A stretch of 62,004 bases of DNA, the filler included, from Hausera hauseri (Eukaryota): the NCBI GenBank assembly GCA_046269625.1. It is 11 parts of 11 records of this genome, joined end to end, with 100 filler letters (N's around TTAATTAATTAA, not from the genome) between each part and the next. Parts side by side here need not be neighbours in the genome. Positions count along the whole stretch, not along the records: positions 38,963 to 52,397 come from JBJURY010810975.1; 10 more parts are not named here. One strand, 5' to 3'. Below the pieces are notes generated by a model. It had not been told where the DNA came from. It worked only from the letters and a program-made list of their open reading frames with translations, and made no database searches. Position numbers and translations under genes: made by a program. Below, piece after piece: positions 8,050 through 57,704 of the stretch (position 1 is its first letter; the number at the start of each line of letters is the position of its first letter).

Positions 8050-8314
8050 CAGAAAATTTGGAAGCTGACCTTAACAATTTATTTACAAAGATCGCAAGGC
8101 ATAAAGGGGTCGCAGTAATATTCATTACTCAGAATCTTTTCTATCAGGGAGGTAGTCATCGTACGAGGAATTTAAATATCCATTACTTGGTCATATTCAA
8201 GAACCCGAGAGATCAAACCGTAATGGATTATTTGGCTAGACAAGCATTTCCTCATAATAAGAAATACCTTATAGATGCATTCATGGATGCAACAAGAAAA
8301 CCACATGGGTATCT
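8050..8314 (+). pseudogene. Polinton/Maverick packaging ATPase (A32/FtsK-like), C-terminal part
   Basis: LFTKIARHKGVAVIFITQNLF...RTRNLNIHYLVIFKNPRD...LARQ..P...DATRKPHGY. Cut by the contig end. Confidence 0.88.
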
Positions 8315-8790
8315 NNNNNNNNNNNNNNNNNNNNNNNNNNNNNNNNNNNNNNNNNNNNTTAATTAATTAANNNNNNNNNNNNNNNNNNNNNNNNNNNNNN
8401 NNNNNNNNNNNNNNTTCCATTGTAGCCCAACGGCGCGCCCCCAGGCATATCACCTCTACTTACTCTATCTTTCTTTTTCTACATAACAACTATATACACA
8501 TACACAGCATTGCATTTACACACTGCACCCATTCATAACTTCATCTCTATCTTACTTCACTTTTTTGATTTCTAACTTACATACAACGCATTTCTAGTAC
8601 CCCTCGCTGGAACTCTACAATCTTCCTTAACCCACAGCTGTCTTCACATTCACTTCCGTATCCGTGGTGGAATGTATTCGTCACCCACAATTAAAACCAC
8701 GCACAAATTTACCAAGCCATAGATCCCCGTCATTCATTTACCCAAACATCGCTTCCAACATCTCTGCAAAACATTCCTCACTCATTCACC

Positions 8791-17959: not shown

Positions 17960-18435
17960 CGATTAATTGTTACGGCAATGGACAGAACGAAGAAAACATT
18001 GGAGGTTAACGATAGCAATACAATTGCAGAATTGATTTCACCCGTCTGTAACAAAATGGACATAAGCAACCATGAAGAGTATTCATTGATTTACGAATTG
18101 GACGAAAAGAAAAAAATAAAAACTAACGTTGAAGAAAGACAAACCAAATTAGAGGTTTTGAAAAAGATGAATTGTTACTTTGATGAAAACACTTTCTCCG
18201 ATCAAAATGTCGACGCGAGAGATCCGATTCAGTCAAATATATTCTATGTTCAGTTAAAAAAGCAATTATCGATAGAACGCATCCCGTCAACATTAACGAA
18301 GTAATCCAACTGGCCGGTATCCAATGACAATCGGAACTCGGCAATTATTCCCGAGACAAACACAAAACAGTTCATTCGAACATCAAAGATTATCTACCGA
18401 AAGAATACGTTAAAGTAGATAAACCTAAGTACAAC
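17960..18435 (+). pseudogene. TLN: Talin head (FERM F1-F2) fragment
   Basis: ISNHEEYSL, FSDQNVDARDPIQSNIFYVQ, HPV..NEVIQLAGIQ*Q and IKDYLPKEYVK match talin (YSDQNVDSRDPVQLNLLYVQ, DFLPKEYVK). One frameshift, one stop and an internal gap. Confidence 0.8.
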
Positions 18436-20404: not shown

Positions 20405-21340
20405 AACAGAGATGATTAGTGCTGTAGGAGCTGCTGTGATGGTTACGTTATCCCATATGGAACGTTTTTGTTGGTAATACGAAGCATAGGGATTAATTAG
20501 AATAGTCATCTCTTTTTTATCAGTTGAGAATTTCACCGGTGGCGTCGTGATCCTCTGTTGTATATCATTGTATTCTTTCTTATTCTTATATCGTATGAAC
20601 ACCGTTGGTCCTTTTCTATGCATTTTATTCTTGAATTTTCCATGTTCCTTTCGTGACAAAGTGTACTTCACATCATATATTTCGCCTCTTGTTATGTTAC
20701 AACAGACTTGTTGTTCATTTGTTATTTCACATTTCGATGATCTTTGCTTACATCCTATTTCTTTTATGGATATTGTTATCCATAGGATGTATTTCAATTT
20801 TATCCTACTCCTAATTTCGAGACAACTTTGTCCACTTTTAAATCCCATTGGTCTTATTATTAACTGGACGAGTATTATTTCATCTAATAATGTTTCATTC
20901 ATTTCATGTCTATTGGGAACTTGTATATACTTATAAAATTTAGTATATAAACTATAATAATAGTTTTCCTTTTCTTTATGAGTGTAAGATATACTCGATG
21001 TGTCCCCGAAGTGTCTATCACACATCGCGTTTCATTTGTCGATGAACGGAGCATACAGTCGTTATATTGTTCATTAAAGTTCTTATTATAACCGTGGACT
21101 GGGGTTATTTGTATCTTTATGACATACTCCCTAGGCATTCGTCTTGTAGTGTACCAGATAATGCATTTTTTGCCTTTCATGGAGTACGTTAATTGGTATT
21201 TTAAGCTTTTTAACCATAGGTTCTCGTTTATGGCCGTGGCATGTCGTATCTTGGCTTGTTTGACTTCTGAATTAGTCATCTGTGTTATCATTATAGGAAA
21301 TAACAAGATGATGATCAGTAATAGGACATTTTTTATCTGG
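20405..21340 (-). pseudogene. Secreted/membrane protein fused downstream of integrase (copy D)
   Basis: NVLLLIIILLFPIMITQ is in frame with the integrase GPY tail. Two Cys-patterned domains follow (CDRHFGDT; CLEIRSR..C..VCCNI) that parallel copy C (CCDLDFGQT; CIRIETK). Confidence 0.65.
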
Positions 21341-21419
21341 AGTTTACTTGTTGTATCTATTTCAATTACTTCCTCACTAATGCTACATACCGATTCTTTT
21401 TCACCTTTTCTTAACTCGC

Positions 21420-24400
21420 TCTCCTTGGCAGCGTGCTTGCATCGATTAATGTGAACTTTAACAAAAGTGTTATTTTTCCTCAAACAGATATTCGATAGGT
21501 CTACCTTTTCTACTTCATATGGTCCTTTATATGGTCTATCTAATTTAGACGTTTTACATTTCTTAATTATCGGTGAATATAACATTACTTGATCGCCTAT
21601 CTTAATCTTCGGCTATTTGGTCTTTTGATCGTAGTACTTTTTATATTTTTGTTTATAATCTTTCTGATTATCACCAATCATCTTATATGCTAACTGGAGG
21701 CGTTCCTGCATTAACTGCTTATAATCATCTATTTCCATTAGGTGTGAAATGGGTTTCACATTAAAATCTAGATCGATTGGTAATCTTGCATCCCGTAAAT
21801 ACATTAAATAAAAGGGTGTCTCTTTAGTAGCCTCATGAACCGATGTCCGGTTTACGAAAACACATGCATTGATATATTTGTCCCAATCGTCTTGCCTGGT
21901 ATTTACCACCGTTTGTAATTTCCCTTTTAAATCTCCAATATACATTTCAACCATTCCATTATTCTCTGGTTGTCCTGGCGTGGATCATGACTTTAATATC
22001 TTCAGGATGTCATATATGGACTGCATTACAGTTCCATTTAAATTTGATTCTTGGGGCTCCATAATTAAATACTATATTTTCTACGAATTTCTCAGCGATT
22101 GTGTCTGCTTTCATGTCAGGCATAGGAAGGGCCACAACCCATCTCGTAAAATAGTCGATGAATACTAAGACGTATTTATTTCCATTTCGTGTCAATGAAA
22201 ATGGCCCTGTTATATCCATCGCGGTAAATTCGAATGGTGCTGGAGGGTAGTCCCATATCTTTAATGATGCTTTGAATTTTGCTCCTGTGTTTTTCCGAGT
22301 AGCACACAGCTTGCAGCTCTCGCACCACTTTTGTACATCTTTCGTTATCGTTGGCCAAAAATATTTCAGTTTTAATTTGTTTAGTGTCTTATTGGCTGAT
22401 TTGTGTCTACCAAGTAATCCATCATGATATTGAGTCAGTAAAACTGCTCTAGTTTTCTTGGGAATTACTAACGCAGGTCCATTTTGACTAATAAAATATA
22501 GAAATCCTTCTTTTTCCTCGTAGGCTTCGCTGAATCGAGCCAGATGACGGGTTAGCTCTCTGTCAATTGGTATGGTTTTATCTTTTGTGTATTTTCTAAT
22601 GGCTTTTATTTCAACATCTTCATTTTGATTTGCCTTAATTTTCTCAATTGATCCATCCATACTCCATACGGCTGCGACTACTGCCTTTGTTTCTTTTTTA
22701 TCGAGCATTCTCCATAAATAGTCGGCGTTAGCATTTTGTGTTCCAGGCTTATACTGGAAATTCAATGTATATGGTTGTAACTTTAAAGCCCATCGTAGTA
22801 GTCTGCTGTTTGGGTTCTCATGTTGCTTTAGCCATTGTAGCGGTCTATGATCCGTATAAATCAAGAGCGGTTTATTTTCGCTAATATACGGTGAAAATAC
22901 TTCTAAGGCAAATATCACTGCTAATAGCTCTTTTTCTATTACAGCGTATTTCTTTTGATACTTATTAAGTTTTCGTGATGCATAAGCTACTGGGTGTGAT
23001 TTTCCGTCTTCACCCTTTTGTGATAATACTGCTCCTATTCCATAATCACTTGCATCTGTTGCCAGAATAAATGGTTTGGTCATGTCTGGATAAATTAATA
23101 TAGGAGCCGTTAATAATTTGTTATTTAGATGTTCAAAGGCTTTTTGACATTTGCTTGTCCATATAACTTTATCTAAATCTTCACGTAATAACTCATACAA
23201 AGGTTTCGCAATTTTGCTAAAATCCTTTATGAATCTTCGGTAATAGTTTGCTAGACCTAGAAACTGACGTAATTTTTTAACGGTACCTGGCTTAGGAAAA
23301 TTCCTTATTTTTCCTAAGAGCTTATACTGAGGTTTTACAGTTTGCCTGTCTACTTTATGTCCGAGGAAATCTACCTCTGCTTGAGCAAATAAACATTTAT
23401 TGGGATTTATCTTTAGCCCCATTATTTCGCATCTATCAAAGAGATCCTGTAGATCCTTCAGATGTTGTTGAAAATTTGATGATGCTATTATTACGTCATC
23501 TATATATACCATGGCGTGTGGAACGTCTAATAGTAGGAGTTCTGTTCCTCTTTGAAATGTTGGTGGTCCATTCTTTAACTCAAAGTGCATCCTATTAAAT
23601 TTCAATAGCCCTTCTCCAATTGAGAAAGCCGTCTTTGGTTTATCTTCTTCTTTGACTTCCACTTGCCAATAACCTTTTTGTAGATAGATGGTTGTGAATA
23701 TGGTCAATCCGTGTAATTTGTCTAGTATCTCGTCAATTCTTGGTAGTGGATATGTATCGGTCTCCGTTATTTCGTTCAAAGCTCTATAGTCTATACAAAA
23801 TCTCATAGTACTATCTTTCTTTTTAACCATCACTAGGGTCGCTGTCCATGGGGAGCAACTTGGTCAAATTATCTTATTTTCTCTCATCCCTTTTATTATT
23901 TTACCAGCTTCCTGTTTTTTACCATATGCTAATCGATACGGTCTTTTCTTAATTGGCTTGTCCTGTCCGTCCTTCAACTTAATGACGTGCTGTATTACTT
24001 TCATTGTACCTAGATCATAGTCAGTTTGTGCAAATCGACTGGCATTCTTTTCTAATAATTCGATTAGCATCTCCTTTTCTTCCTTACTTAGAATTTCGCA
24101 TTTTTGCAACCTCTCGTTCCAGTTGAACTTCATGGTTTTATTTCTTTTGTCTTCGTCGGGTTTCTTCTTCAATTTTTCTGTCATCATCTTCTCTATTTTA
24201 TCTGCATCTAATATTATTGAGCAGATTTCTTCTTTTATTATTTCTTTAGTGATCGTTACTTTTCACAGTCTAGTAGCCTTCCGTAATCGTTTTTCTTTGT
24301 TTATTGTGTTACAGATTCGTAAGTGGATCTTTCTATCTTTTGCTTTATCTACCTGAGAGGCGATTAGTACCTCATATTTTTCCATAACCTGTGGAGATAG

Positions 24401-24480
24401 TTCAAAATAGACAATCTCTGGTAAAACAGGACTCTTGATTTTTCCAGATACTACTATCTCGGATCGCGGTGGAATTACAA
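21420..24480 (-). pseudogene. pol (RT-RNase H-integrase), few lesions
   Basis: RFCIDYRALN, YIDDV, FLGLANYYRRFI, TDASDYGIGAVL, YTDHRPL, YHD..H...CESC, MDITGP and YKGPYEV. Confidence 0.95.
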
Positions 24481-24789
24481 TGTCTTTTATTATTTAAACC
24501 AATCCCTCGTTATAATCTTCATTGAATATCTTAAGTTGACATATACTCATATAGATNNNNNNNNNNNNNNNNNNNNNNNNNNNNNNNNNNNNNNNNNNNN
24601 TTAATTAATTAANNNNNNNNNNNNNNNNNNNNNNNNNNNNNNNNNNNNNNNNNNNNATAAATATTCGTAATCAATAGATTCCAAGTGTGAAGAAAATCAA
24701 GTTCCGAAAATCGATTTTAAAGAGTTGATATTTTATATTTTTCTTCTATTAAAACAAAATATATCATACGCACACACAATTGTTTTTTT

Positions 24790-38962: not shown

Positions 38963-39925
38963 ACTCAAGGAGCAATAAAACCAGATAAAGAACGGGCTAA
39001 CATAACGAAACTAGATGACATAGTACAATCGATGGACCCAATCAAATGGGTATTAAATGAAAATATAGCCAATATTTCAGCTAATAAGAACGACAAATGT
39101 ATCCAAATAGACACAAAAGGAAGACTGTCCAGTAAACAAGAAATCTCAGTCCAATTTACGAAATTAAAGGAGTCAAGTCCAATGCCTGAATATTGTAGTC
39201 TAAAGATCACAAATCTTAGCATCTGTTGTAAAATTGCAGCATGTCATGAATATAGGATTCATTTTGACCTCTATAGAACCCAAATAAATAGATCGAGTAT
39301 CTATTTAGGAAGATATTATCCAGACAATAGAATCTGGAAAACTTCGGTTGAAACGACTACAACTAGCCGAACTGTCCCAGTAAGCACTACTGTTAGGCTT
39401 ACTATGACAAAAAAAGATGAACAAGAAGAAATTACTTAAGATTCCGGTAAATACTCTGCGCAGCAACACAAAATACTATTTTCAGTGGAAGAGAAACTCA
39501 ACTATAATATCGAAATATACTGTCGTACTATGTATAAAAGTGTGAAAACAACTTTATGGAAAGGCTCATATCACACTGAATGTAACTCATTAGTATCCAA
39601 GACAGAATACATAATCCAAATGCATGCAAAAGATGCTCAGAGTCAGACGCTCACAATACAGACCCTAGAAGAACTACAAATAGCACCATATGGAGACAAA
39701 AACACAAAACAAGAAATAACTACAGAGATAACAATTACAAAACCCAAAGGATTGACCACATTATCAATAGTAATGGTCGTAAGTCTGTCAACGCTTGTGT
39801 TTATAATATGTCTTGCGACATTTCGATTAGTTGCCGTAAATTGTCATACTAAGCGTACCAAAATCGTAGAACGGAAATTAAGGGTATGGGAACCCCAAGA
39901 ATACGTCTATGATAAAATAACCTGA
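38963..39925 (+). pseudogene. Type I membrane protein: Cys domain, Thr-rich linker, FN3-like domain, TM, YDKIT tail
   Basis: ECNSLVSKTEYIIQMHAK (FN3 C-terminal signature) and TM LSIVMVVSLSTLVFIICLATFRLVAV. One frame break near 39440. Confidence 0.75.
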
Positions 39926-40043
39926 TTATTACAGATCGGGTTATTCTATCATCAAACAAAGAATTTGTTTTGGTTTAAAAACTATACTTTGTTTTGAGAT
40001 TAACCCTTACTGTCTATTGTTTAAATTGATAAGTATCCAGATG
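39909..40043 (+). promoter_or_regulatory. Conserved double hairpin plus branch-point/acceptor-like signal (copy A; homologs at 46150-46287 minus and 53740-53864 plus)
   Basis: Stems ATGATAAAATAACCTGAT/ATCGGGTTATTCTATCAT and AAACAAAG/CTTTGTTT, then GATTAAC and a T-rich tract before the ATG. Confidence 0.7.
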
Positions 40044-42530
40044 GATTGCGGAATCAGCCGACGTAGCATCGACAATCAATTGGGATCAGGAAGCAGCCGA
40101 CGTAGTATTGACGATCAGGTCAAAAAATCGAATTCAGGAAGGAGCCGACGTAGCATCGACGATTTCCTGCAGAATTGTGCAACAGTATTAATCCCTCCAT
40201 CTAAGTCAATCTTCCGACAAATCAATAACGAACTACTCGCAAAACAATTCGTGGAATACAAACGAACACATGAGATCCCAAATAACTTAAAAGGCAGTAC
40301 CGAGGAAAACCGGACAGTACGATTATATGCAATGAGAGAGGATAAGAACGTGCGAGCGTACGCATTAGAACAACTCGTTCAATACGAACCAGTATATTAC
40401 CAGAATATATTTATTCACTTAGCGGACGGAGGAATCTATTACAGATTAAAAGATCAAAGTTGGGACTCTGCGCAAGGACGCCAACACAGATATAGTATTT
40501 TCCTAATCATTAGCAGAGATTTCCACCATTACAATTGTGAATTAGAATTTCGAGTCGCCGCATTGCCTATCAAACTTATCATAGAAGTATGTTATGAAGG
40601 CGCACCATTTATCCAGTTACCACCATTACGATTCCATTAAAGGCCAACTGAGAAGGATCAAGACGACCACTTACACTCCTTCAAATTAGTCCAAGACGAT
40701 AGAAATGCCAGGATAATTACTGTAGATTACGGAGAAGCAGATGATGACGTCCCAATCGGGGTATCTGTACGAGAGACAGGAGGAACAGAAATCTACGCAG
40801 AATTGATCACTCCCAAGAAGAGAGTACGAGAAACTTGTCTAGAAGTTACTGGAATCAAAAAGGAGCAATTAGTTAACGGAAGAGACATCGAATTAGTTCG
40901 CAAAAAATTACTCCGTTGCCTGTATGGAAGTATACTTGTTGGATATCAAATAGAAAAGATCGTGGAAAGTTGAAATTACCCGATACCCACGTGAGTTGGG
41001 TTAGAGAAATCGAGACCCACCCAATAGTCATGCAGCAGATGGAACAAACCGTTCGCAAGAAGAATGGTTATTTACCACCGACAGTAGAAGGCCGATTTAA
41101 GCCAATGTTGGAAGCTATGAGTGAAGAAGACGTTCGAATTAATAGACTCTTTACAGCGAGCCAACGTTTCCAATATCTAAAAGATATATATTCAGGACTT
41201 AAATGGAAACACGAATGGACTTTCGATAACCCTAGACAAAATTTGCGAAACACAACAAACCCCGAAGGATTAATTTCCAAACACAGAAAGCATTTTAGGC
41301 CGTATTCCCCCGTCAGAATGGTTGAATCAACAACAAGGGACAAACAATTACCCCAGCACCAGTAAAAGCCCAAATTCAGAGGCGGCCGAGCAAAAATCTA
41401 AGGATCAAAAATAATTAAGGGTACCGACAAAACCCGAAAGAAACCAAAAAGGCAAAGAAGAAGCTACATTTTCCACGGGAAAAAGGAAACTATCCCTATA
41501 CGAATACTTATTCAAAAAGAAGAATAATGGAGAAGACAACCGAAAGGTAGTTGCAAAACCTGAAAAGCCTGAAAAGACAGAAACTTAAAACGAAATAATA
41601 AAAAAAGAATCTCCGAGCACCGAAACCCTAAATAACAAAAAAGAAATGCACTCCGAAGAAATAAAAAGAAAGAAGAGAATTCAAACCCAAAGGAGAAAAT
41701 CAGACAGCGATATCGTTACCATTGAAGTGAACGTCTTGAAAAAGAAAATATTAGAAGAAAATGTGTATTTCTCCACGAACAAAGAATTTCCCAGACTACT
41801 CTTAACGGCCGAATATTGTAGCCATAAGAAAATAAAGGAAGCAATGTTCTATGTGAAAAACGCTGGAATACAAGAAACACCAGATGGAGCATACGCTTGG
41901 GAAAATCTCAGCATAGGAAATTATTTAGCCCCAATTTTTTGGTCCAAAAGGACTGGAAAGCTGTTTCTTCCTGTGAACAACCAAATTAAACTAATGTTTA
42001 AAAGGCAATATCAAGCTTACCAAAAGGAAGGTGAGATTCCCGACTTAGATAAAGAAACCATTATGGACTGGACATTAGTCCCAGTAAATTATGATCCTAA
42101 AAAGAGTTCAATTAACACCCAACAAAAAGAACTATACGGTTACCTATATTCCGATCAAGACGGACTAATATTTGAACGAATCCAGATTATACCCAAGGTT
42201 GACTTGGACGATGACGGAAACACGAATGAGAATGAAGACACTTGCCCAGTATGTAACGAGAATATCTGGCAAGGTTACGTTAAATTGGACAACCAAGCGT
42301 GTAGACACAGATACTGTCGCACGTGTTTAGAGACGTGGACGTTGGATAACGGAAAAACGACATGTCCAGTATGCCTAGCCGAGGCTGATGGGTTAAAATT
42401 TTTTTCGAACGGTGAGTGTAACAGATCCGTTCCTATACAAAGTCAGCCCAGTACTAACTATACAATAGAGGTGGAACAAGTTGACGACAGTAGTCTCCGG
42501 AGTAGACTGGACCTACTGCGCCGACAGTAA
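40041..42530 (+). pseudogene. Accessory ORF (about 830 codons): unknown N-domain, DEDDh-like exonuclease fold, Lys/Glu-rich linker, unknown domain, C3HC4 RING
   Basis: RIITVDYGE...VSVRETGG..I..P...VTGIKKEQL..G..I..V....L.G.ILVGY, and CPVC-x15-CRH..C..C-x12-CPVC. Broken by a few stops and frameshifts. Confidence 0.8.
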
Positions 42531-42590
42531 TCGGGCGCCATCTTTCCTGACACAATCGGCACATGCGAGGTGTCGTTCAGGGAGGAGAAA

Positions 42591-43359
42591 TGTTACGATT
42601 ATACATTTTGTAAAGTACGATTATGATAGCTTGCTAAAATTTAGATAAAATGCAATTAGTTTATATTAATATTCGATAGTTGTATTAATATTCGCCAATT
42701 GATAATAATTATGTAATGCGAAAAAACAGGTGTAAATCAAAAGAATTTGTACGTAATCGGAAAGAACGGATTTTAATTATTAGTTAATTGATCGAAAGTG
42801 ATGTAATCGCAAAATGGGTGTAGTATAAATAGAGACAGATTTACAGAATAGTCAGAAAGTTTTTCTGAGTTAGATCCGACAGCGATAACACAGAAAACCG
42901 AAACGTGACATTCGAAGTTAACGTATTCCAGAAGCATCAGAGGATAAAGTGCCCGAGACCTACTGTGGTGAACAAATGGATTACTCAACCGATAGCAAGA
43001 TATTGAAGTACAGGGGACGAACTGTTCAGTAGACAGAATCATTGCGAAATTGTTGATATTTATTTGGGTATTAATTATATTTTGTGTATAAAAGTGTTAA
43101 CTTATTTCTTATAGTTTCCATCGATTCTTAAAATCGATTTGACAACCCTAAGATTGTAAAATTACACTTAACTTATATAGATAAGAGAGATTCTTTTCAA
43201 ACTACGCACAGGACATAGCACGCAGTACCCGTATAGAATCTTAAATCGTAAGGCACATCCTGATTTACCGAGAACGGTAAACCGTACCTGTGTTATAAAA
43301 ATATTTTAAATTTATTGTTAGATAGTGGGAGAAGTTAGGGCCCAACCCAAAATCTAACA
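42591..43359 (+). repeat. 3' LTR of copy A (769 bp)
   Basis: Follows the PPT AGGGAGGAGAAA. Termini TGTTA...TAACA, TATAAATA at 42824. Shares AAAATCGATTT and GCACGCAGTAC with the copy C LTR. Confidence 0.88.
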
Positions 43360-43660
43360 CTTATATACTAATGCAACTGCGTACGTGACTGATTTCATTT
43401 ATTATTTTTGGAATTATAAAGTTTTTAACTTAATTGTTCGGTATTATCCGATTTAAAGATTAATATAAATTCAACGCTTTCTCCAAAAATTTTACAAAAT
43501 ATACCAAATTATTGCTAAATTCTTTCTCTATATTTGTACAAATTCCTAAGTTCGTACAATAATGATAAATACCATAAAATAATAATTATTTACAATTTGC
43601 TGCTGATAATAGTATTTACAATTTTTGGACGTCTTTGCAATACTGGACGTCTTTACAACA
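43360..43660 (-). repeat. Interrupted 3' LTR of copy B (first 301 bp)
   Basis: Minus strand PPT CAGGAGGAGAAA then TGTTG. Ends at TATATAAG, directly abutting the end of the copy A LTR. Confidence 0.8.
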
Positions 43661-46151
43661 TTTCTCCTCCTGAATGGCATCCTCGGATGTGCCTATTGCG
43701 TCAGGAGAGGTGCCGTGAGAACGAGGCGAACGTAATAATTCCATACGTTGTCTTAAACTGGTTTCAAAGCTGGTACTTGGTTGGCTTTCTCTGGGATTTG
43801 TTTCCAATTCGTAACTGTAGTATGGTTTTGTCCTAACTACCCGAGTATAACTACCGTTGGAATAGTAATTCAAATCAGCAGCCTCAGCTCTACATACTGG
43901 ACATGTGGTTTTTCCATTATCCAACGTACATTTCTCCATGCAGTCTCGGCAATATTTGTGTCGGCAATCCGGGTTATTTAGTTCTACATATCCTTGCTTC
44001 AGATTCGCCTCACATACGGGGCATTCATGCTCTTCTCTCTCATAATTTCGATAGGTTCTATTATCAACACTTCTTCATCTTGGTATAAGTAGGCATATAT
44101 TCTCTTCTGTTTCGGATTTATTGAGCTTTTCTTGGGATCACATCCCACGGTTATTAGAGTCCAATCGCTGATAGTACCTCGATTTAAATCGAGAACTTCA
44201 CCAGTCGATCGGTATTTTTGATATTGTTTCTTTAGTAACAACTTTATTGATTTATCCACGGGGACTAGAAGTTTGCCATATCGGTGCAACGTATTTTCCG
44301 ATCTTAGGATTTTCCCAGACATAAGTGTTCTCGTAGACTTGTCTGGCGGGCATTAATTTGACGAAAAACATCGCCTCTTTGATCCTTTGTTTACTATAGT
44401 ATTCTGTCGCAACCAACATTTTAGGATAATGCTTTGTAGTGGCGTAATGTATGTTGTCCGTAGAGTTCTTCTTCCGTAATATATTTATTTCCGTTATCCG
44501 TTCCTTCTGTTTGCTCGTTATCCTTGTAGACTTCTCAGTATGGGTTTGAATAGTCGTTTTTGATGATCTTTTTGCTTGTATTCTTGGACTGTTGGTTCGC
44601 TTTATTTTTGAATCCTTATTGTCTGATCTGCGCCCTTCTTTTGGTTCATTTTCCCATTTACTTTTTTTCTTGAATAAATATTTGAGGAAGGAGGTTTTCC
44701 TCTTAGCTATCTTTCCGATTTCGATTTCTGGAATTCTGTCTTTTTCTTCTAGGTACTTTCAGGGAACTTCGGGTATTTTAAATAAATTATTATTTTCAGC
44801 GTTCTCCATAGTTGACGCGGCGCAATAACTTGTACTTGGCCTTTCCTCTGTTTTTAGTTTATTTCCCGTTTTCTTGGTTCTCAATCCTTGGATCGTTATT
44901 TGATAATTCCACTTTGGTGTCATTTCGACGTTTCATGGTGGAGAGTATGGGCAGAAGTGTTTTTTGTATCGTGTACTGACCCCTTCAAGTTTGGGAAAAC
45001 TTCGTAGGTTCTGTCCGGGGTTATTGGGAATCCATTCATGTTCTCATCTTAATCCAGCGTTTGTGTCTCTTATATACTGGGATCGTTGACTAGCGATCAA
45101 CAGTCGGCTTATTTTTATGTTTCCTACGGTCATTGCCTCTACCATTAACTTAAATCGGCCTTCCACGGTCGGTGGTAGATGACCCTTTTTCTCTTTAACC
45201 TTGATATCCATTTGTCCCATTACAGTTGGGTGGGTCTCTATCTCTCTGATTCCGGCTAGGTGAGTTACTGGTATGTTTAATTCCTCTATCATTCTTTCTA
45301 CTTGATACCCCACTAAGACGTATCCGTATAGGCACTGTGCTACTTCCTTTTGCACTAATTTAGAATTTTTTCCGTGTATTAATTGTTCTCGTTTAATCCC
45401 AGTTACTTCTGCATAGGTTTCTTGTACTTTCTTTCTTGGGTTAATGATTTTCGAACAGACCTCGGCCCCATTTTCTTCTCGTATGAAAATTTCAATTGGG
45501 ATATAATTTCCTTCATCTCCTTCTCCATAGGCTATTGCGGCAATTCTGATGTTCCTGTCATCGGTTACTAATTTGAATGAGTGTAGATGCGCGTCCTGTT
45601 CTTCTTCAGTGGGCCTTTGCTTAAATTCTAAGGGCGGCAATGTAGTGGTTATTGTTTCCTCTTTAGTTATTTCGACTATCATTTTCACAGGTAATGCAGC
45701 TATACGAAATTCCAACTCGTAATTGTGGAAACTTCTACTGTTAAATACTAACGTGCTAAACCGGCTTTGTCTTCCTTTGGAATGAATCCCATTTTTGGTC
45801 TTTTAGCCGATAATAGATTTCCCCGTCGGCTAAGTGTACATATATTTTCTGTTCCTTGTCCGTTTGGTGCTGGGTGATCTGTTTCAAGGGGTATGCTCTG
45901 GCATCCTTATCTTCTCTCCATGCATATAAATATATAGCTCTGGCCTCTTCAGTTGTTTCTTTTAAATGGTTTTGTATATCGTCGATTTTTGTGTACTGAA
46001 TGAAGTTTTGTCCTTGCAATTCTGTGTTGATTTGCCTATAGATGGCTTTTGAGTTCGGGATACGTACAGTCACATACTGTTCCAAAAATTCGTCGATGCT
46101 AAGTCGGCTCGTATTTTTCTCATCGTCGATGCTAAGTCGGCTCGGGTTCAT
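43616..46151 (-). pseudogene. Accessory ORF copy B (DEDDh-like fold plus RING)
   Basis: IAAIAYGE...IINPRKKV...EVTGIKREQL..G.....VQKEVAQCLYGYVLVGY, and CPVCEANL...CRHKYCRDC...TCPVCR. Confidence 0.82.
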
Positions 46152-46270
46152 TTGGATCTGATTACTTACCAATCTGAAAAAAAGACATAAAGGTTAATCT
46201 TAAAACAAAGGATGGTCTTAAACTAAAACCAATTCTTTGTTTGATGATAGAATAACCTGGTCTGTAATTG

Positions 46271-47700
46271 TCAGGTTATTTTATCATACGGATCTACCGG
46301 GTTTTTCAATTCCCTTAATTCCCATTCGGAGTTTTTAGGACGCTTAGAATAACGGTTTTTGGTAACTAGTCGAAAAATCGCAATTAACATAATGAGAACA
46401 AACGTTGACAGTGCAGAGATGGATACGATCGACAGTGTAGTTAATCCCATTGGTGTTTGTGTGGTGACTAGAGTTGTGATTTCCTCATCTACATCCTCAT
46501 ATGAATGCTACTCTGCACGAGTTTCGCCTAAGGTACACAATGTGATGGTTTGGTTTTGTTTATTCTCTGCATGCACTTGTACTATGTATTCGGTTTGTGG
46601 TTTTAATAAGTTGCACTATGTTTGATAAGTATTTTCAAATAGCGTCACAATTTTATTATTATATGTTGTTTGACAACTTATTTATATATTGTAGTTTTGT
46701 TTCTTTTTCACAAATAACACAATTTTAGATCGATATGCCGAATATTTAATTGGAATGCTTCCTAATTCTCTTTTAGGCACACGGCTTGACGTAGCGGTTA
46801 CCGTAACGGCACTAACTCGAGTGGCTGGCTTTTTAGTGGTCAATTCTACTGTGATTTTCCATATTCAATTTTCTGGATAATAAGTTCGTAATTGTACACT
46901 TGATTTGTTAGGTCGTACCTCGTACAAGTCGAATTTTATTCTAAACTCTTGGTTCACGGGTAGTTTGCAACAAGGGTGTTGTACGCCTGCGCAAATAGAA
47001 CAATATTTTATTTTCAGAGTTGGTCTATTAGCTGCTTCGAATGTGATACTAATTTCTCGACTGATAGTTAACTCTGTTTGGGCATCTACTTGGATGCATT
47101 GTTTCTGCTTGTTTACAGAGATTCTCCAAATATTTTCGTCTAATAGTCTTACATCTGGGTCGGTAGATCGTAGCATTTCGCTGGGTTTTACTCCATGATG
47201 TCTGTTCCATGCATGAATGACTAATTGAAATTGTGGTTTTACTTCGATATAAACTTCGATTGAGTCTGGTAAGTATAGGCGATAAATAAGGTTATAAATA
47301 CGTCCAAAATCTATGTCGCAACTCTGCGTATTTTCTCCAGGCTCAAAATCACAATTCTTCGCTTCTTTCGTTGTTACATCATATAAACCAATCTGAAATC
47401 TTCCGAAATCGTGGTGTGGCCTCCAAGCCTAAAATCCAACACATACTGTATTTGGCGAGTAATAATGAATTGTCATTTATTGTAACAATTTAATATCTTC
47501 TTGTCTTTGAATTTCTTCGACTGTTGGTTTCTTCTTCGTTTTAATTGTTTCCGGTTTTGCTCCACTCTTCCGAATTCCATATATATCTCCTAACGTAGAT
47601 TCATCGTGCCACCTTTGAATCTGTGTTCGCAGAATATAAGAAGCAATTAATGATAATGCTAAAACTATCTGAACATATGATATTGGTCTAGCAATTATTG
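46271..47700 (-). pseudogene. Type I membrane protein copy B (signal-like segment, two Cys domains, FN3-like domain, TM, YDKIT)
   Basis: ISYVQIVLALSLIASYIL follows the integrase end KRYNLRQRK in frame. CNLLKPQTEYIVQVHAEN; TM GLTTLSIVSISALSTFVLIMLIAIF. Confidence 0.75.
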
Positions 47701-47719
47701 AGGAAGTTTTTACCTTACG

Positions 47720-50700
47720 TTGACGTAAATTATAACGTTTATTGGGCCGTATTTCCGTCTTAACAACTCTTTGTACTGACACGATTTCTTCCTTTCCGTT
47801 TTTGTTGATGTACACCGTGGTTGGTGTAACTCTGGTAACTTCGTACGGTCCTCTGCCTGTACGAGTTAATTTCAATGAGGTGCCTTTTTTGGCTACGGGA
47901 TAGTGTACATAAACTCAATTCCCTTGTTCTAAATCGTGCGGTTTAGTTTTCTTATCATATTGCTTTTTAAACTGCTCTTGATATTCTTGAGACAACTCTT
48001 TGGCGATTTCCCAACATTTTTGCAATCGCACCTGTAATGCTTCTGCAAAATTCTGTTCCAAGTCTTCCGGCTTTACCGTGTAGGGCGTCATTCCTAAGTC
48101 TGTACGTAACACAGCTTCACGTCCATACATCATAAAAATGGCGTAAATCCTGTTGCTGGATGCGGAGTAATATTAATTGCAAATTGAGTTCCTTCTAAAA
48201 ATTCGTCCGAATCTTTTTTGTCCTAAGCTACTACGGTTGATAGTATAGGTATGACAATTGCATTCATTCGATCAACTATTCCATTACACTGCGGATGATA
48301 CGCAGTTGTGGTTAACCTTACGATTTCAAATATTTTGCTAATCTTCTCGAATAGTTCACTGTCAATATTTGGTCTGGCGGTCCATATCGGCAAATGATTC
48401 TTCTAACCACAACTTTGGCCAAGGTTTCTTCCTTTTGATCAATTAGCGCTATTCGACAAAATGAGTTAGTCGATCAATACAAGTCAAGATGTAATTATTG
48501 TCCTTGTGTATCGTAGGTAGCGGTCCTACGATATCCATTGATATGGCCTGCATGGGTCTATCCGGTACGTTGATTGGTTTCAGTTCTGCCATGCATTTTT
48601 TGTCTTCTTTTGTTTCGTCGCACATACTTTACAAGCATTCACCCAATTTTTTACATCAATATAGATACTGGGCCAAAAGTACTTATTCAATATTCTTTCC
48701 AGCGTCTTTTTCCATATGTGTCCTGCTAAATATGAATCATGTTCTGCCATTAAGACTTCGGTTCGTAAACTCTTAGGAATGACTATCAGTTTTCTTCCTT
48801 TCCGTTCGTGATATAAGATATCTACATTACTTTTGTCATTTAAGACGCAGTATTTATGTCCCTGCCTGTGTAAATGTTTCTTTGCCGTCCTTTTGGTATG
48901 ATGGCCTTTTTACCAAATTCTATAATTTGCTGAATAACTTTATCCTTCCTTTGTTCGATGGAAATTTTAATCGTTTTATCCATTGTTAAGACGCGACTTT
49001 TCTTCATTATGGTGATTACACTTGTTTTCGTCCTGAATCTTGATAGTGCATCGGCATCTACATGTTTATTTCCTGGTTTATATTGGAATTCAATATTGTA
49101 TCTAGAGATTTCTTCGATCCATCTATTAAGTCTGCGTGTCGGATTATTTGCTTGGCCTTTTAAGGTCGTGACGGCTTTATGGTCAGTGACAATTATAATT
49201 TTCTGCCCGCACACATAAACGTTGAAATTTCTAAGCGATTCTTTTACTGCTAGGGTTTCTAATTCAGTAACAGAATAATTTTTCTCGGCTTTCTTCAGGG
49301 AACGTCCTCAATAAGCAGTTGGGTGTTCTAATTCTTCATCTTTTCTTTTCTGCGCTAATTCATATCCAATACTTTCTTTAGTGGCATCTGTTTTGATTAA
49401 AAAAGGTGAATTGAAGTCTGGATATCGTAGAACTGGTTCACTTTTTAATATTTTCTTCATTTTGTCGAAGACTTTCTGTTCGACATCCGTCCATTTCCAT
49501 TTAATTCCCTTTTTGAATAGTCGGTACAGAGGTGCATTAATTTTTGAGTTATCCGGTACGTAGGTGGCATAATATCCACAAAGGCCTAGCCAATATCTTA
49601 ACTCTTTCTGATTTTGAGGTTCCATGCAGTCTGATATCTTGTTTAATATTGATTTGTCCGGTTTTGATCCTCCTTCTTTGACTATATGGCCAAATTAAGA
49701 TACTGCGTTCTGTGCCCATTTACTTTTCGGATTTAATTTTAATCCGGCCTGTTCTAGTCCCATCAACGTGTGTTCAATATCCTTTAAGTGTTCCTCTTCC
49801 GTTCTTGACGCTATCATTACATCGTCTAAATATGCAAAAGCAGGGTCTAACCCCAATAATATTTTGTTTATCATCCCTGTAAATATGGCCGGTCCGGTAT
49901 TAATACCAAAGGGCATTACGTTGTATTCATAAACACCATTGTGTCTTGAACGCTGTTTTATATCGATCTTTGTCTTCGATTTCTACTTGCCAAAATTCGG
50001 ATTGTAAATCCAGATATGGTAAGCCATTTTGCCCCTAAGAGTCTATCCAGAGCCTCTTTTACACATGGCATTGAAAAAGAATCTTTCATCATGAAATTAT
50101 TTAGTCCTCTGTAGTCGATACAGAATCGATGTTTCTTAGTACCTTTCTTTTTAACCATGAGGATTGGTGAGTACCAGGATCTATAACTGGGCCTAATTAT
50201 ATCGGCCTTAAGCATTCGCTTGACTTCTTTTGTTATCTTGGGTCTTAGTGAAAGTGGCGGAGGATACCATTTCGGCATTTTTTGATCTTCAAGATCTATC
50301 TCTTCATTCGAACCAGGCTTCTTCTGAAGCGGAATAGTCAACTTTAATGACTTTGCCCTGCCAATATCTTCGTCGTTCTGAGCAATAATCGACTTATAGC
50401 GACACAATAATTCATAGAATTGACAATATGATTCAGGTGAAGACTTAGTTTCAACATGCGGTGGGAAATCGGCATACTTGTAAGAATTTTCTTCAGTACT
50501 TATAGATGACACCCTATACGTATCTCCTAAAGTCGTATAGGCATGAAGTTTTACGGGGGTCGGTACATTATTTTCTATCCTGATCGTCAAACGACCGGAG
50601 TATACTCTTGTCAATAAGTTACTGAGTATTGTATTTGGATTCAATGTCTCCTTTGGTTCAAAATATACCGGTTGATCATCATCTTGTTGAACATGCGCGT

Positions 50701-51140
50701 AAATTATTATTTCTGTTTTCGGCGGAATGTTTTTATTTACTGGTATCCATACTTCCCCAAATTTTCTATCCTTCGTGTTTTTTACACCTTTATTCGGCCT
50801 AATTTCTATTAATTTTCCCGTTTGTAAGTCTATTGCTATATTCTGTAGCCTTTTTTATAGGTCACACCCTAAAACTACGTAGTCAGTTAATTGTTCCATG
50901 ATTGCAAATTCGTGACGGAAGAACTGTCCGACTATTTGGACTTCTGGGTTCCATTTGAACATTGGTTTCGACATTTGGCCAAAAGCTCCTCTGCTGCCTG
51001 GGTCTTCCGTAAATGATGGGTATAACTGTCCTCTTAAGGTTTGAGGTATACAATCTATTTTAATGTAAGACATCTCAGAAACCGCATCAATTAATGCGTA
51101 AACCTCCCAGTCTTCAAGAATGATTTTGGCGAAGGGTCTT
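47720..51140 (-). pseudogene. pol copy B (PR, RT, RNase H, integrase)
   Basis: YALIDAVSE and VVLGCD (PR), RFCIDYRGLN and YLDDV (RT), KTDAT and VTDHKA (RH), IDIVGPLP, YHPQCNG and GRGPYEV (IN). Confidence 0.93.
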
Positions 51141-51829
51141 CTTTCTATTACTGTTCCAAAACAGTTTGATGCAACTTTTGGACGCTTATTCGCCGATATT
51201 TTATGTCCGTTGATTCAGATTTCTGGGGAGGATATTATGTTTTCTGATCATTGTCTTAGTTCTCCGTTTGGATATAATCCATTGTTTTCCACGTCCAATT
51301 CTTTCGTTTCATGAGTACTAAATAATGGTTCTCGATTGTTCGTGTGAGGCTCTATATTCCGGAAAGTTTTTAACCTTGGATTTTCCCAGACAAGTGATCT
51401 AGTCTCTATGTTCCGAGGTTCTCTCGGGGAATACAATATTTTAGGGTCAACCATGGGTTGTCGATAACATATTTTTCGTAGGACTCCATAACGTTTCGTT
51501 CCTTTATAGGGGTCTTCTAAACTAATTGTCCTCTTATAGATTTTTGTATGATACGATTTCATTGATCGCTTGTCACAATCTTCGTAAACTGGAGCAGTAG
51601 GGAGTAGCATAGGCAGTGGTGCTTTAATGACGGAATACGTTCTGTGCCTTTCAGTTTTCGAAGGTACTTCTCCTCTCTTAGGCTCGTTATCATCTGAACT
51701 ATTCCTTTGTGTATTATGTTTCGTGATTTTCCGCTTGTTCAAGAACATAGGTTTCCTTTTTCGTTTACGATTATAGTAACTGACATGACGTTCTACGTCC
51801 GATTTCCATCTATTCTCTTCGTATGCTTT

Positions 51830-52397
51830 CAAAAACTTTCCAAAAGACGTTATAATTGCAGTTAGTATCTTGCATGAAAATCCAGTCAATGTAAATATTT
51901 CATAACCATTTATTACTGTTTGGATGACTGCCTTAATTATTTGTATCAGGAAATATATCGCTAAGAATCCGGATGCGGCTTGTCGAAAAATCAAAAATCT
52001 TCCCTAAGTTTTGTAGAGTATTTCTGTGGTTACCCTCTGGTAATGGTTTACGCCAAGCAGTGATTCCCATTTAGCTTGATATCTAGTATCATCTACTACC
52101 GAGGCCATGGCTCGATTTAATTCATGTGTCCGCTGTCGTGGAAAGGCAAGAAATTGTCTAAAGGCTTCAATATCTTTAGGCCTATATATGCCTTTTTGTG
52201 AGGTATCCTGGAACTTGTCGACGGTGATTCCTTTTGCAAGATTCGTGCCAGTTAGCTTCCTTGGGGCAGCAGTAATGCATCCATTAGGAAAACTGACCCA
52301 ATCTGTTTCTCTAAGTCTAAACATAAGCTCGCCCAAACTTGCCTTGCAATCTTAAAGGATTGTTGGTTCAGTTACGTTATCTAATAACACTAGTGAG
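51830..52397 (-). pseudogene. Chuvirus-like (class III-type) fusion glycoprotein, C-terminal part
   Basis: DC...LMFRL...W..FP, GIYRPKDIEAFRQFLAFP, T*GRFLIFRQAASGFLAIYFLIQIIKAVIQTVINGYEIFTLTGFSCKILTAI. This fits the recalled chuviral G pattern GIY...D....R....FP / W..F..FG..SAG......IK....T.IHGY.L....GWS..LL.A. Confidence 0.78.
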
Positions 52398-52497: not shown

Positions 52498-53756
52498 CTT
52501 CTTATGTACCCAAGGTGAAATCGATAACTATAGCCGAAAAACTACGATACGCGATGAAACGCAGGTATATCCAGAATATGAGTACACGATATGGATTGGA
52601 GCAAACCATGTGTATGGTTTGAAGCAAGCGAACCTATTAAGAACCACGTAAAACTTCAAATAACATTTGTAACCAGATACACGATGAGAACATGTGATTT
52701 TCCATACGGATATGAAAAAAGATGCTGTGATTTGGATTTTGGACAAACCTACGGATGCAGATTTCAAGTGCTTTATTCTAATCAGTTTGCAGCTCAAGTT
52801 TATATAATTACAGAACTCGTAATAAGAATGCCCCAACAAGAGGACGCAAACCAAGCCAAGACGGACGAAATAATCCGAAGCACTGACCCGTTTAAAAGAC
52901 TCTTAGATTATAACATTATGGGGATTTACAAGGACTTACAGAATCAGTGTATACGAATTGAGACCAAAATAGAGCTGCCTGGAGACAGACAAAATTCTGT
53001 CTCATTTATACCATTAAATGCTTACATTTCTAACCCGGAGTATTGTTATCTGGCCAGACACCTATCTACTACGTACTGTGTAATACAAATAGAACAGGAT
53101 TATCAGTTTTAATTCGACCTGTACAATACGTACCCCGGAGAACAAAGCACTTATTTAAGAGGATACTGTCCGAAAAACGGAATATGGAAACTGTCATTCC
53201 CAACCACTACGAAAAAACGGTCTACTGCTCCGAATACAACTCGCACTACTACGATCGTCACTTTGGATGGAATGCCAGGAAGCATACCGGTTAAGATTTT
53301 GGCAAAAAGCAATAAAATTCTATTTTTTGCTGAAGAGACGTTAAATCAAGACGCCAAAATTGAATGTCGCACCCTGCACACCAACCAAGTCGTGATCCTG
53401 AGAAAGAATAGTCAGGAAACTGAATGCAGGTCATTACGGCCGCAACATTACTATATAGTCAGAATCACTGCAAAGAGTAAGAACCCTAAAACGTACACAG
53501 TGTGGACTTTAGATAATAGAATTGAAATAATGCAGCATAAGGGTCTTAGTACCCAAAGTGTGTTCACCACAAATAGTTCCATCAAGGAAAATAATTTACC
53601 AATAATAGCTATATTTAATTTGCCTAGTTTCGTTCTTGTCACATTAAAGGCGATGATTTTTCTATTTTCCACAAATTGTAATAAAAGCTGTAAATATCAA
53701 AAAGGAGATAAAAGGGAAAAAAGCACCAAGACGGACTTTATGATAGCATAACCTGA
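52498..53756 (+). pseudogene. Type I membrane protein copy C
   Basis: Two Cys domains, ECRSLRPQHYYIVRITAKS (FN3-like) and a hydrophobic segment. An alternative frame ends LYDSIT*. Confidence 0.72.
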
Positions 53757-53861
53757 CAACTACAGAATGGATTATCCTACCATCAGACAGAGAAAATGTT
53801 TTGTTTCAAAACAATGATCTGTCTTAGGATTAACCTTTATTTTTATTTTAGCAGAGTAAGT

Positions 53862-56288
53862 ATGGCCAAGAAGGCGAAGAATCCACAGTCAGTTCCAATT
53901 TTGATATCGATGGCTTCCTACAGCAGCACGTCACGGTTCTTAAACCACTATCCAAAAGCTTATATCGACAAATTGGAGAAAATCTGAAAACGCAGAACTA
54001 TCCAGAGTTCGACCAAGAAAGTAAAATACCAAACGGACTAAAATGGGGTTTAGAAGAGAATCGACTGGTTCGATTATATGCCATGCGAAATCCGAAGGAT
54101 GCACGGGCATATCTTTTAAGAGATCTAATTCCATACGAGCCGACACATCAGCAATTGTACGTACATGTCGCTGATGGATAAATTCAATTCAGGATCGTAG
54201 GACAATCCTGGAGTACGCAAAAAGGGCAACAGTGGAAATTTAGTACTTATGAGCTATGCTGCTATAGCCTCATAAATTATGCTCTGGAATTCAGGATCGC
54301 GGACCTTCCGACCAAAATTATGATCGAGATGACGTGGTGAACAGAGGTAATGAAGCCACTACCACCGTTATTATACGTAAAGAAGCCATCAGAAGATGAA
54401 ATAGAGTAAATGGGAAATTGTATAGATTAGTCCCAGATGGCCGAAATACCCGGATATTAGCCGTAAACTATGAAGAAAAGGATGACGGATGGTATGTTCC
54501 GATTGAGGTCTCTATCAAAAATACTAATGGAGAACAGGTTGTAAATAAAATAATCGCACCATGAGCGATAAAAGGATACTTTTCCTGACGTTGAAGGAAT
54601 TACAAAAGTTCAGCTCGAAAAAGGAAAGGATTTCTTGTAGATCCAAGAAGATATAAGCCATTGCTTATATGGATATATTGTTACCGGATTCCGAGTGCAC
54701 AAAGCGTTGGAACGATTAGGAATTAGGCAAGAATATATAGCCGGAATTCGAGAATTGAGCCAAAACCCAGCAGTTGTGAGCCAAGTAGAAAATACCTTGA
54801 TGCGGAAAACAGGTTGCCTGCTTCCGTCAGCATTGCGCGAATCGCAATTTTAGATGATGCTAGAAGCCATGAATGTCGAACGATCCAAATTCCATAACCT
54901 GATTAAAACAAGTCAACGGACCAAATTTATAAAAGATATCTATGACTCGTTACGATGGGATCACGAGTGGAAACCTAGAAATTACATGCAGAATGCGATA
55001 TTCGACAATAACCCCAAGATCCTAATACAAAAAATCCAAAAAGGATTTAGTAAATACCCGATTTATCGGCAAGTAGTACCCCAAGAACATAACCGATTTT
55101 GAGTGACAGTTCAAAATAATCCAGTAGAAGTTCCTAACAGCCAACAAAAACCAACGACCAGTCAAGCTCAAAAAGAAATAATAGTGAAATCAAATAACCC
55201 CGACAACTCAAGAAGGCAAAAGACAAAAACTTCCTTCCTGGAATATATTAGTAAGAAGAAGAGCAAACCTAGTAAAAATCAAACAGACGAAAACAAACCA
55301 GCAGCCGACAGCCCAATTCAGAAGGAACCGACAAACGATCAAAAGGAAATATCGAACCAACAAGGAACAAAGGAAAACAACGAAAATCAGTGAAGAACTA
55401 CCAAAACCGGATCGTTTAAGACAGAAGTTAACGTTCTTCGGAAAAACTGGGAGGAAGATACTACAATTATCGTTACAGAATTCGGTCAAGTGAAGGAATA
55501 TAAAAGAATCCTCGTCATGCCTGAGTATTATAGCAAATGTAAAATCAAAGCTATATTTTATGTATCCACTGTCCCTAGAAGAATAGTAAGTGGAAACGGG
55601 TATGCCAGAGAAGATACTACCATTGGCAGATACCTAGCCCCAATATTTCAATCAAAGAATGGCACTAACAGATTGACAATTCTCGTGGATACCCAAGTTA
55701 GAATTCAACTAAAAAGACAATACAAGAAAACTGGAGTACCCGACTTGGATAAATAGGAAATAGTTGAATGGACATTGGTTACGGTATCCGACGATCCGAA
55801 GAAAAATTCAATAGACCCCAATAAAAAGAGATTATACGGATATATATACCAAGACAAAGAGGGACTGGCATTCGAGAGAATAGAATGGATGAAAACCTTG
55901 TGGACATCGACGGAGCTGAAAAGGAAGAATGTCCCGTTTGCGACGCGGATCTCTATCAAGGATTCGTAGTACTGGACAACAAAGATTGCAGTCACAAATA
56001 TTGCCGGTACTGTTTAGAGACGTGGACCCTGAAAATGGGAAAACGACCTGTCCAGTATGCAGAGCCGAAGCTACAAGGCTGAGATACTACTCAAATGGAG
56101 AAAATAAGAAAATAGTAGAGATATTACCCGAGAAGGCCACTACGTCCTACCATTTTAACTTGCAATTGCCGTCGAACGAAACGGATTCGGAAGCGGACTT
56201 ACGCGGACGAATGAAGCGATTACACGGCACCTTTACTGACGCAATGGGCACATCCGAGAGTGCCGTTCAGGGAATAGAAATGTTGTGA
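53862..56288 (+). pseudogene. Accessory ORF copy C (DEDDh-like fold plus RING)
   Basis: RILAVNYEE...VPIEVSIKNTNGEQVVNKIIAP...GIT..QL..G......EDISHCLYGYIVTGF, and CPVCDADL...CSHKYCRYC...TCPVCR. More decayed than A or B. Confidence 0.78.
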
Positions 56289-56958
56289 AATGGTCACCCT
56301 TGTAAATACTGAAACCGAAAACGAAACCGTTAATCAAAACGGAAAGTGAAATGATAAGTTAATGGATTGTATAATTAGTTTATGAAGTTTTGAAATGCAA
56401 GCCGAGTGTAAATAAACCGAAATTCTATTGAATACTTGAAAATAAATGAACAAAATCCAGTAAAATACGGGAAATGCGAAAATCAAGGAAATTAAATTGT
56501 AAATAAACGAGTCCAGAGCTACTATATAAGCCGATGGATTCATGTATAGTTGCCAGTTGTTAAACAGTCAATACGAGTAAACAGAATCAACATTGCGTAA
56601 TACAGAAGAATTCGATACGGTTAATAGAAGGACATTGAATTGAACTGTGAATCTACGATAGTGATATTGGTATTTTCTTTGTTGTGTTAATAAATCATTG
56701 TTGTAAACTCCTATAGTTCTCCGTTGCTCCTTACGAGGGACCTGTACCACACTAAGTTTTAAAATCGATTTAAACTTCATAGTTAAGTTGAGAATTTCTA
56801 AACTATGCAAGACACCGCACGCAGTACAAGCATCATAAACTAGTGCAAACATTCTAACGAGAACGTTAGGACTTATCTGCTCAAAATCATCATTAAACTT
56901 CGAGTTTCAATATTGTTATAGTTGGGTGTTGAATAGGGTCCACCCTCAACTATTAACA
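56281..56958 (+). repeat. LTR of copy C (678 bp)
   Basis: PPT AGGGAATAGAAA, termini TGTT...AACA, TATATAAG at 56523. Confidence 0.88.
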
Positions 56959-56960
56959 TT

Positions 56961-56978
56961 TGGCGACTCTAGCAGGAC
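56961..56978 (+). promoter_or_regulatory. Primer binding site, probably tRNA-Arg
   Basis: TGGCGACTCTAGCAGGAC starts 2 nt after the LTR end. It is complementary to a tRNA 3' end ...GAGTCGCCA, as in Arg(UCU)-type tRNAs. Confidence 0.75.
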
Positions 56979-57245
56979 AGTTGGCACTCGCTAGACTTGA
57001 CTTTTAGTGAAAAGTAACTACATATTAGCGATCAGCGCTACCACATCAAATAATTGATTGTAGATTGTTGTGAAATTGAAATTTGGGATTATAAGAAACC
57101 CTCAGTATTATAACGACATATTATTGGATCAAGAACGAATATTGATAGACATAAGTCAGACGATAACTTAAATCTCATTCTAAACGGTAAGGAGAATAGT
57201 GATTTTCGAGAAACACGTAATAGAGTTTATAGACAATGTAAGACG

Positions 57246-57704
57246 TTGATTAGACGCACTTTATCTGAAACAAATTTAGCTAATACTGAATCTATTGACT
57301 TAAACGCTGTTGAACAGCCTATTGAATTTAAAGTTCCTGATAAGAGAATTAGAGCTCGTAAGGTAGTTAAGCAAAATCTAGTAAACGTTGAGAATATTGT
57401 TGAAAATCAAGCAGTAGCTCAAAAATTGGATATTTTTACATTCGATTCTCTAAATCTTCAGGCGTACGACGGAGACCCGGACGGACTTAATGAGTTCTTA
57501 AGGACATATAAGTTGCATGCAGAAGGTGCTGGACTTGCAGCTAACGTGATGATTAAACGTTTGTCGTTGTATTTAAAGAATCTGGCCGCTGATGCCTATA
57601 GTGAACTCACTGACGAGGAGAAGAAAACTTGGTCCTCCTTGGTAGGAGCCCTGAATCGAAAATTGTTACCGACTGTAACTCCGCAGCAAAACTCATGGCT
57701 TTCC
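57246..57704 (+). CDS. Gag (capsid N-terminal region), partial
   Basis: AYDGDPDGLNEFLRTY...RLSLYLKNLAADAY..L......TWSSL..AL, downstream of the PBS. The start codon is uncertain. Confidence 0.85.

Follow-up and report, generated by a model that had tools for sequence, protein, structure and literature searches.

The question raised by this locus is whether a chuvirus-like glycoprotein lying upstream of the protease and reverse transcriptase of a Gypsy element belongs to the same polyprotein as these enzymes and, if so, how such a chain would be arranged with respect to the membrane. The window analysed is a stretch of 62,004 nucleotides from the Hausera hauseri assembly GCA_046269625.1 (11 parts joined by 100-letter fillers), in which positions 38,963 to 52,397 come from JBJURY010810975.1; its DNA has about 36-39% GC and contains many decayed mobile elements, Gypsy among them. 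We consider, with a probability of about 0.7, that the locus holds the remains of one copy of an abundant Ty3/Gypsy element, and that the family of this element encodes Env, protease (PR), reverse transcriptase (RT), RNase H (RH), integrase (IN) and, probably, Gag in a single ORF, the product of which would be threaded through the endoplasmic reticulum (ER).

The first-pass annotation had placed four ORFs (52004-52336, 51248-51994, 50855-51073 and 49958-50644) in one minus-strand frame, with offsets of 342, 921 and 429 nt, and recomputation returned the same values. From 52396 to 49958 (-) this frame holds only five internal stops and the closing one, when about 57 would be expected from composition, and the two other minus frames over the same interval contain 68 and 63. 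The internal stops are found at 52352-54, 52004-06, 51248-50, 51215-17 and 50855-57. The annotation had described the ORFs as separated by point stops, one of them a TAG where the glycoprotein pattern expects Trp. The stop at 52004..52006 (-) is a nonsense lesion just ahead of the Env anchor, in a column that is invariant in 21/21 relatives; the stop at 52352-54 had been overlooked. Read through these lesions, the frame begins with the C-terminal third of Env and the Env anchor, continues with a basic tail and then a retropepsin, and reaches the first part of RT.

The chuvirus-like identity claimed for the upstream part was borne out by the Pfam profile PF24664 (Monjiviricetes_fusion), which matches two colinear pieces of glycoprotein, one with residues 431-509 of the profile (E 2e-4) and the other with 543-612 (E 7e-13), and the segment can also be aligned colinearly with 21 relatives. 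The first piece belongs to the C-terminal third of a class III (chuvirus/gB-type) ectodomain at 52007..52396 (-), which is cut by the contig end. Only this last third is present because the contig stops at 52397, at a filler of N's, and gag is absent from this copy because the contig (38963-52397) ends upstream of Env. The assignment of Env to class III rests on PF24664 and on a low-confidence model of the Env of a relative, P0004 (pLDDT 45.5), which matches herpesvirus gB, GP64 and VSV G with a best E of 1e-8; TM-scores for this Env model and for the FN3 model discussed below are about 0.13-0.2. The ectodomain is followed by a predicted transmembrane anchor at 51923..51979 (-), with a hydropathy of 1.96-2.07, which is the sole segment above the threshold in the 813-residue frame. 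The tail that joins Env to PR in frame (51143..51841, -) is basic, with 22 K/R against 9 D/E in its first 75 residues, and is interrupted by the stops at 51248-51250 and 51215-51217.

The retropepsin (50804..51142, -) was located with a profile built from the proteases of 14 relatives, for which 51142-50804 is the best match in the whole window (iE 3e-14). In this copy its catalytic motif is degenerate, the stop at 50855-50857 falls within it and Pfam gave no protease match. The Env anchor and the PR motif are 305 aa apart; in the 14 relatives, the first such motif lies 130-370 aa from the anchor. The PR-RT spacer, RT and RNase H follow at 48918..50803 (-), as identified with RVT_1, RT_RNaseH and tblastn with the relatives, and integrase, with its H2C2, core and C-terminal parts, at 47720..48909 (-) (Integrase_H2C2, E 1e-16, and tblastn); both regions are frameshifted. 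Thus RT, RNase H and integrase lie downstream of PR in the order of Ty3/Gypsy elements, and the Pfam set (RT_RNaseH_2, Integrase_H2C2) is that of a Gypsy-type pol. The spacer is 25-33% identical to that of the relatives by tblastn and lacks a Pfam match. There are seven frame changes between the tblastn pieces of pol, and the copy is dead.

As the copy is dead and no intact one of its family was found, whether its junction stops are decay or part of the design has to be read from other copies. The stretch is present in one sequencing run of one study, X1 (word share 0.46), which may be the source run. There, 11,095 contigs fall on 49000-52397, most of them less than 95% alike, which indicates a large and old element family. 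A total of 280 X1 contigs was placed on the junction, 51175-51300, and the two junction stop codons carry a non-stop base in 3128/3438 (91%) and 1005/1116 (90%) of the depth, in agreement with the expectation that other copies would have sense codons near 51248 and 51215. No indel row is found among those listed for this interval, seven of the eight contig pieces shown are gap-free and, among the other listed variants at the junction, none creates a stop. With a non-stop codon and no indel in roughly nine tenths of the depth, the stops at 51248-50 and 51215-17 are the result of decay. Similarly, the middle base of the 52004-06 stop differs in 41246/41904 of the X1 depth. A point against a conserved reading frame here is that minor variants show only a slight preference for third codon positions (6/9 minor variants at the junction, P 0.04; 8/15 overall, P 0.09). 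Programmed readthrough at 51248-50 was considered and rejected, since most sister contigs are non-stop there.

These data also bear on the proposal that Env and Pol are separate products. In this case the tail would contain a stop codon or a site of readthrough or splicing, Pol would be made apart or at a lower yield, and the shared frame would not imply one chain. The inspection of sister copies covered the junction and little of the tail at 51300-51840, and this copy, with about 10% divergence from most contigs, could have lost a stop. Moreover, a 1:1 ratio of Gag, Env and Pol is unusual among retroelements. GAG, ENV and POL are, in addition, treated as ORFs, with gaps of up to 2 kb allowed, in the parts of a survey of errantiviruses considered here (PMC13524379). 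However, about 90% of the depth has a non-stop codon at each of the two candidate positions, the tail of this copy contains 251 codons without a stop (P about 1e-8), and the relatives, both L001 (see below) and proteins, run uninterrupted. Separate products are, consequently, decidedly unlikely, and a single Env-Pol ORF in the element family is very well supported.

Relatives were sought by phmmer against 1.84 billion representative proteins, which gave 108 matches, 13 of them at E<=1e-10. Of these 13, 11 were scanned with Pfam, and a protease follows Env in the same chain in nine, three of which continue through RT. A further search, restricted to proteins of 1444-4598 aa, a size filter that favours fusions, retrieved 11 proteins with Env and PR in all of them and RT in 10/11. 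Gag is found upstream, in the same chain as Env-Pol, in P0014, P0117 and P0125. At the DNA level, a metagenome scan yielded at least one locus (L001) from 593 stretches, with a stop-free ORF of 3,426 codons that encodes Env-PR-RT-RH-IN and is followed, as in the window element, by a DEDDh exonuclease ORF. By contrast, scans of viral_contigs and genome_contigs found no relative, a word-index search of the anchor-tail ORF against longer proteins had no match, a similar query with Env-RT returned two generic pol proteins only, and the Env-PR profile, when run against PDB sequences, matched only proteases. Some relatives have additional features: P0008, P0012, P0112 and P0118-P0123 present 2-5 protease-like motifs between Env and RT, and in the L001 ORF a third membrane protein is inserted among such motifs, at residues about 1585-1770. 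P0003, a 2,627-aa Env-Pol polyprotein, is entered at NCBI under a Flavobacteriaceae MAG and most likely represents animal DNA binned into it.

The relatives are distant, with 25-32% identity in Env and 39-41% in RT-RNase H. In a quick Env tree of 44 rows, from which none was dropped, the window Env is sister to 17 polyprotein Envs (SH-aLRT 88, on a long branch), and 26 stand-alone glycoproteins fall outside this group. The latter include true chuviral glycoproteins, such as those of Lishi spider virus 1 and Chuviridae sp., and insertions of this kind, flanked by Gypsy fragments and without capture, have been reported (PMC10084718); it might thus be proposed that a chuvirus glycoprotein entered the genome on its own, landing upstream of a Gypsy pol, and that the shared frame is a coincidence. 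Nevertheless, the best matches are polyprotein Envs, with which the tree groups the window Env, the 11,095 contigs show a similar divergence across env and pol, and contigs span the junction. An independent or fresh viral insertion is, therefore, largely refuted, and we regard it as most improbable. In a tree of 20 RT rows, the window element is unplaced, with a long branch (3.2) relative to the Burro-like relatives; given this and the RT-RNase H identity of only 39-41%, the element is considered a separate lineage with the same layout. The proposal of a Gypsy element with a fusogen N-terminal to PR in one frame is, consequently, sustained by PF24664, the shared frame and the decayed junction stops. 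The env-pol order assigned to it was correct in that Env is upstream of pol, but the full order is probably gag-env-pol, as in relatives with Gag, and not env-pol alone.

Such a single ORF raises the problem of how Gag, Env and Pol would reach their compartments. Topology was judged here from a hydropathy scan of 13 long relatives. In 10/13 of them a hydrophobic signal immediately precedes Env, which closes with an anchor, and in 12/13 integrase is followed by a pair of segments, signal and anchor (P0123 has no such pair). Of these, the window element retains the segment that anchors Env and both segments after integrase, which are read in the frame used by the integrase C-terminus. According to these positions, the polyprotein would be threaded through the ER with Gag left in the cytosol; an internal signal, cleaved by the host signal peptidase, would open a luminal Env ectodomain, and the Env anchor would bring the chain back, so that the tail, PR, RT, RH and IN would form a cytosolic loop. 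A second cleaved signal and its anchor would then produce a luminal FN3-like glycoprotein. Pol would be held at both ends as a membrane precursor, and the element protease would free it during the assembly of enveloped particles. Basic residues that flank membrane segments tend to stay in the cytosol (the positive-inside rule), and the basic tail fits this side. We think this topology, which is predicted from sequence features, is probably correct. The earlier suggestion that the Env anchor tethers Pol to the membrane may, accordingly, be kept as a prediction for the precursor until PR cleaves it, and no further.

A different topology of the same ORF has also to be weighed, in which a second hydrophobic segment would cross the membrane too, or the ectodomain would be only partly translocated, so that Pol would not simply be anchored on the cytosolic side. 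In this copy, that segment (51842..51898, -) has a mean hydropathy of 1.56 and may be a juxtamembrane or amphipathic helix. It exceeds the transmembrane threshold, with scores of 2.07-2.11, in 4/13 long relatives, and the gB-type ENVs in PMC13524379 are described, in part of that text, as flanked by two transmembrane domains. Against a second crossing, the anchor is the more hydrophobic of the two in 20/21 relatives (there is a tie in P0122), the hydropathy of the second segment in the 21 is 1.0-1.7 with one or two charged residues in each, and the strongly basic tail comes next. Besides, a luminal Pol could neither reverse-transcribe nor integrate. Segment parity is not clean, given these four relatives and P0112, where segments above the threshold before RT are unpaired; in L001 the extra insert before RT is another hydrophobic pair. 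Overall, this arrangement is unlikely, and the cytosolic Pol loop is preferred.

The membrane protein that follows integrase (46271..47700, -) is a second type I protein that shares its frame with the end of integrase and has two hydrophobic segments and, in this copy, several stops. Its layout includes a predicted signal, about three FN3-like domains, an anchor and a short tail, and it is 31-41% identical to its sister copies. A low-confidence model of the FN3-like ectodomain of a sister copy (pLDDT 50.1) matches tandem FN3 domains of fibronectin and gp130, with a best E of 8e-7, and the Atlas neighbours of the post-IN domain of one relative are of FN3 type (0.81-0.87), which we take as a lead only. 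The presence of this protein after integrase, in the same frame, suggests a polyprotein predicted to cross the membrane four times. It has been tempting to compare such an ORF with those of alphaviruses and flaviviruses, as one that crosses the ER four times and would supply a two-glycoprotein entry system, with a class III fusogen and an FN3-type attachment partner, in a broad invertebrate Gypsy lineage; here, the host signal peptidase and the viral protease would yield Gag, the fusogen, a membrane-held Pol loop and the FN3 glycoprotein. We advance this extension only tentatively, and a role of the FN3-like protein in attachment is, in itself, doubtful.

Downstream of this protein there is a 3′ accessory cassette (43616..46193, -) with an ORF of unknown function, a DEDDh exonuclease-like ORF, another unknown ORF and a RING finger. 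Its Pfam matches are RNase_T (E 0.03; 2.5e-4 in a sister copy) and zf-C3HC4, and the same cassette recurs in the window at 39921-42614 and 53852-56288. By eye, the exonuclease-like ORFs at 45044-45802 and 40449-41203 seem to be without the first acidic motif, which is kept in the L001 exonuclease. The element ends in the start of a probable 3′ LTR (43361..43655, -), which begins at 43655, as deduced from inspection and from alignment with sister LTRs, and appears to be interrupted by a sister element, the 3′ LTR of which meets it head-on.

Among known systems, the Anakin element is reportedly built on a BEL/Pao backbone with env downstream of pol, while the window element has Env upstream and the Pfam set of a Gypsy pol, instead of a BEL/Pao-type pol with env after integrase. 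The likeness lies in the glycoprotein family, PF24664, which is the same in both (Dezordi et al. 2020, PMC7642597). Closer is Burro/GYPSM1, a giant Ty3/gypsy element of planarians with an in-frame Env between Gag and PR that matches mononegaviral fusion glycoproteins (Arkhipova and Yushenova 2019, PMC6431247). It shares with the window element the PR-RT-RH-IN order, the in-frame Env in one polyprotein, which we find here from this copy and from sister copies inspected mainly at the junction, and a RING-type accessory domain. Its internal region reaches 25 kb, with an ORF1 of about 5,000 aa, MATH, ubiquitin and BCL2 domains before env and a dUTPase-like domain between PR and RT (PMC6431247). 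Some of our relatives have weak matches to domains that Burro also carries, namely Bcl-2-like in P0004 (E 1e-3), ubiquitin-like in P0119 (E 0.018) and ankyrin in P0112 (E 6e-6). In contrast to Burro/GYPSM1, the window element is compact, with about 8.7 kb from Env to the 3′ LTR and one protease domain, and has the post-integrase FN3-like protein and the exonuclease ORF, neither of which is mentioned in the parts of that paper considered. The two elements are compared by description, and the RT of the window element is 39-41% identical to Burro-like relatives.

Errantiviruses with the order GAG-ENV-POL and an HSV/gB-type ENV have, additionally, been described by Chary and Hayashi (2026, PMC13524379, which cites Sacco et al. 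2022) in Nematoda, Bryozoa and Platyhelminthes. They share with the window element the order of the genes, the class of env and a pol of Ty3/gypsy type. The sections of PMC13524379 considered describe no 3′ cassette for them, and polyproteins are not a subject of its main text, from which the terms "polyprotein", "in frame", "fused" and "frameshift" are all absent. In bdelloids, the Juno/Vesta elements also have an exonuclease-like accessory ORF downstream of pol (DEDDy, in ORF3), although, as far as PMC5408684 describes them, they carry an F-type env in a separate ORF3 and intact exonuclease residues, while those of the window element appear degenerate. As the gene order was already published for Burro/GYPSM1 (PMC6431247) and the GAG-ENV-POL errantiviruses (PMC13524379), the novelty implied by the first-pass annotation is not upheld, and our headline claim is not new. 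The layout, however, extends to a compact and distant Ty3/Gypsy lineage, and what our results suggest as new is the additional membrane protein, FN3-like, that is encoded after integrase and shares its frame. In the passages of the literature considered, we found neither signal-peptidase processing nor a post-integrase FN3 protein for such elements, a weak negative; as a conserved protein, it is a candidate partner of the fusogen. The element family also seems to abandon the retroviral rule by which Env comes from a separate spliced mRNA and Pol is made in a smaller proportion. Topology and processing can be tested in relatives that are naturally free of stops, namely L001, P0003, P0119 and P0125.

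Other elements surround this copy. At 38963-43360 (+) there is a sister element with an FN3-like membrane protein, an exonuclease-like ORF and a RING finger, whose proteins are 34-56% identical to those of the main element and whose LTR of ~770 bp (42591-43360) meets the latter head-on, apparently inserted into its 3′ LTR. A third sister family occupies 52498-57704 (+), with the 3′ cassette and, at 56290-57704, an LTR (about 56290-56960), a PBS-like site and a gag (57114-57704) that matches the Gag of Env-polyprotein relatives (E 4e-15), an arrangement that could reflect tandem copies or a collapsed assembly. Another Gypsy pol, at 20405-24556 (-), is 42-52% identical to Env-polyprotein relatives, closer than the main element, and its integrase is followed by a hydrophobic segment; the contig does not reach the upstream part of this pol. 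Finally, a degenerate fragment at 17894-18304 (+) resembles a talin head, and several decayed fragments at 728-8366 look like genes for a protein-primed DNA polymerase and an ATPase, as found in Polinton-like elements.
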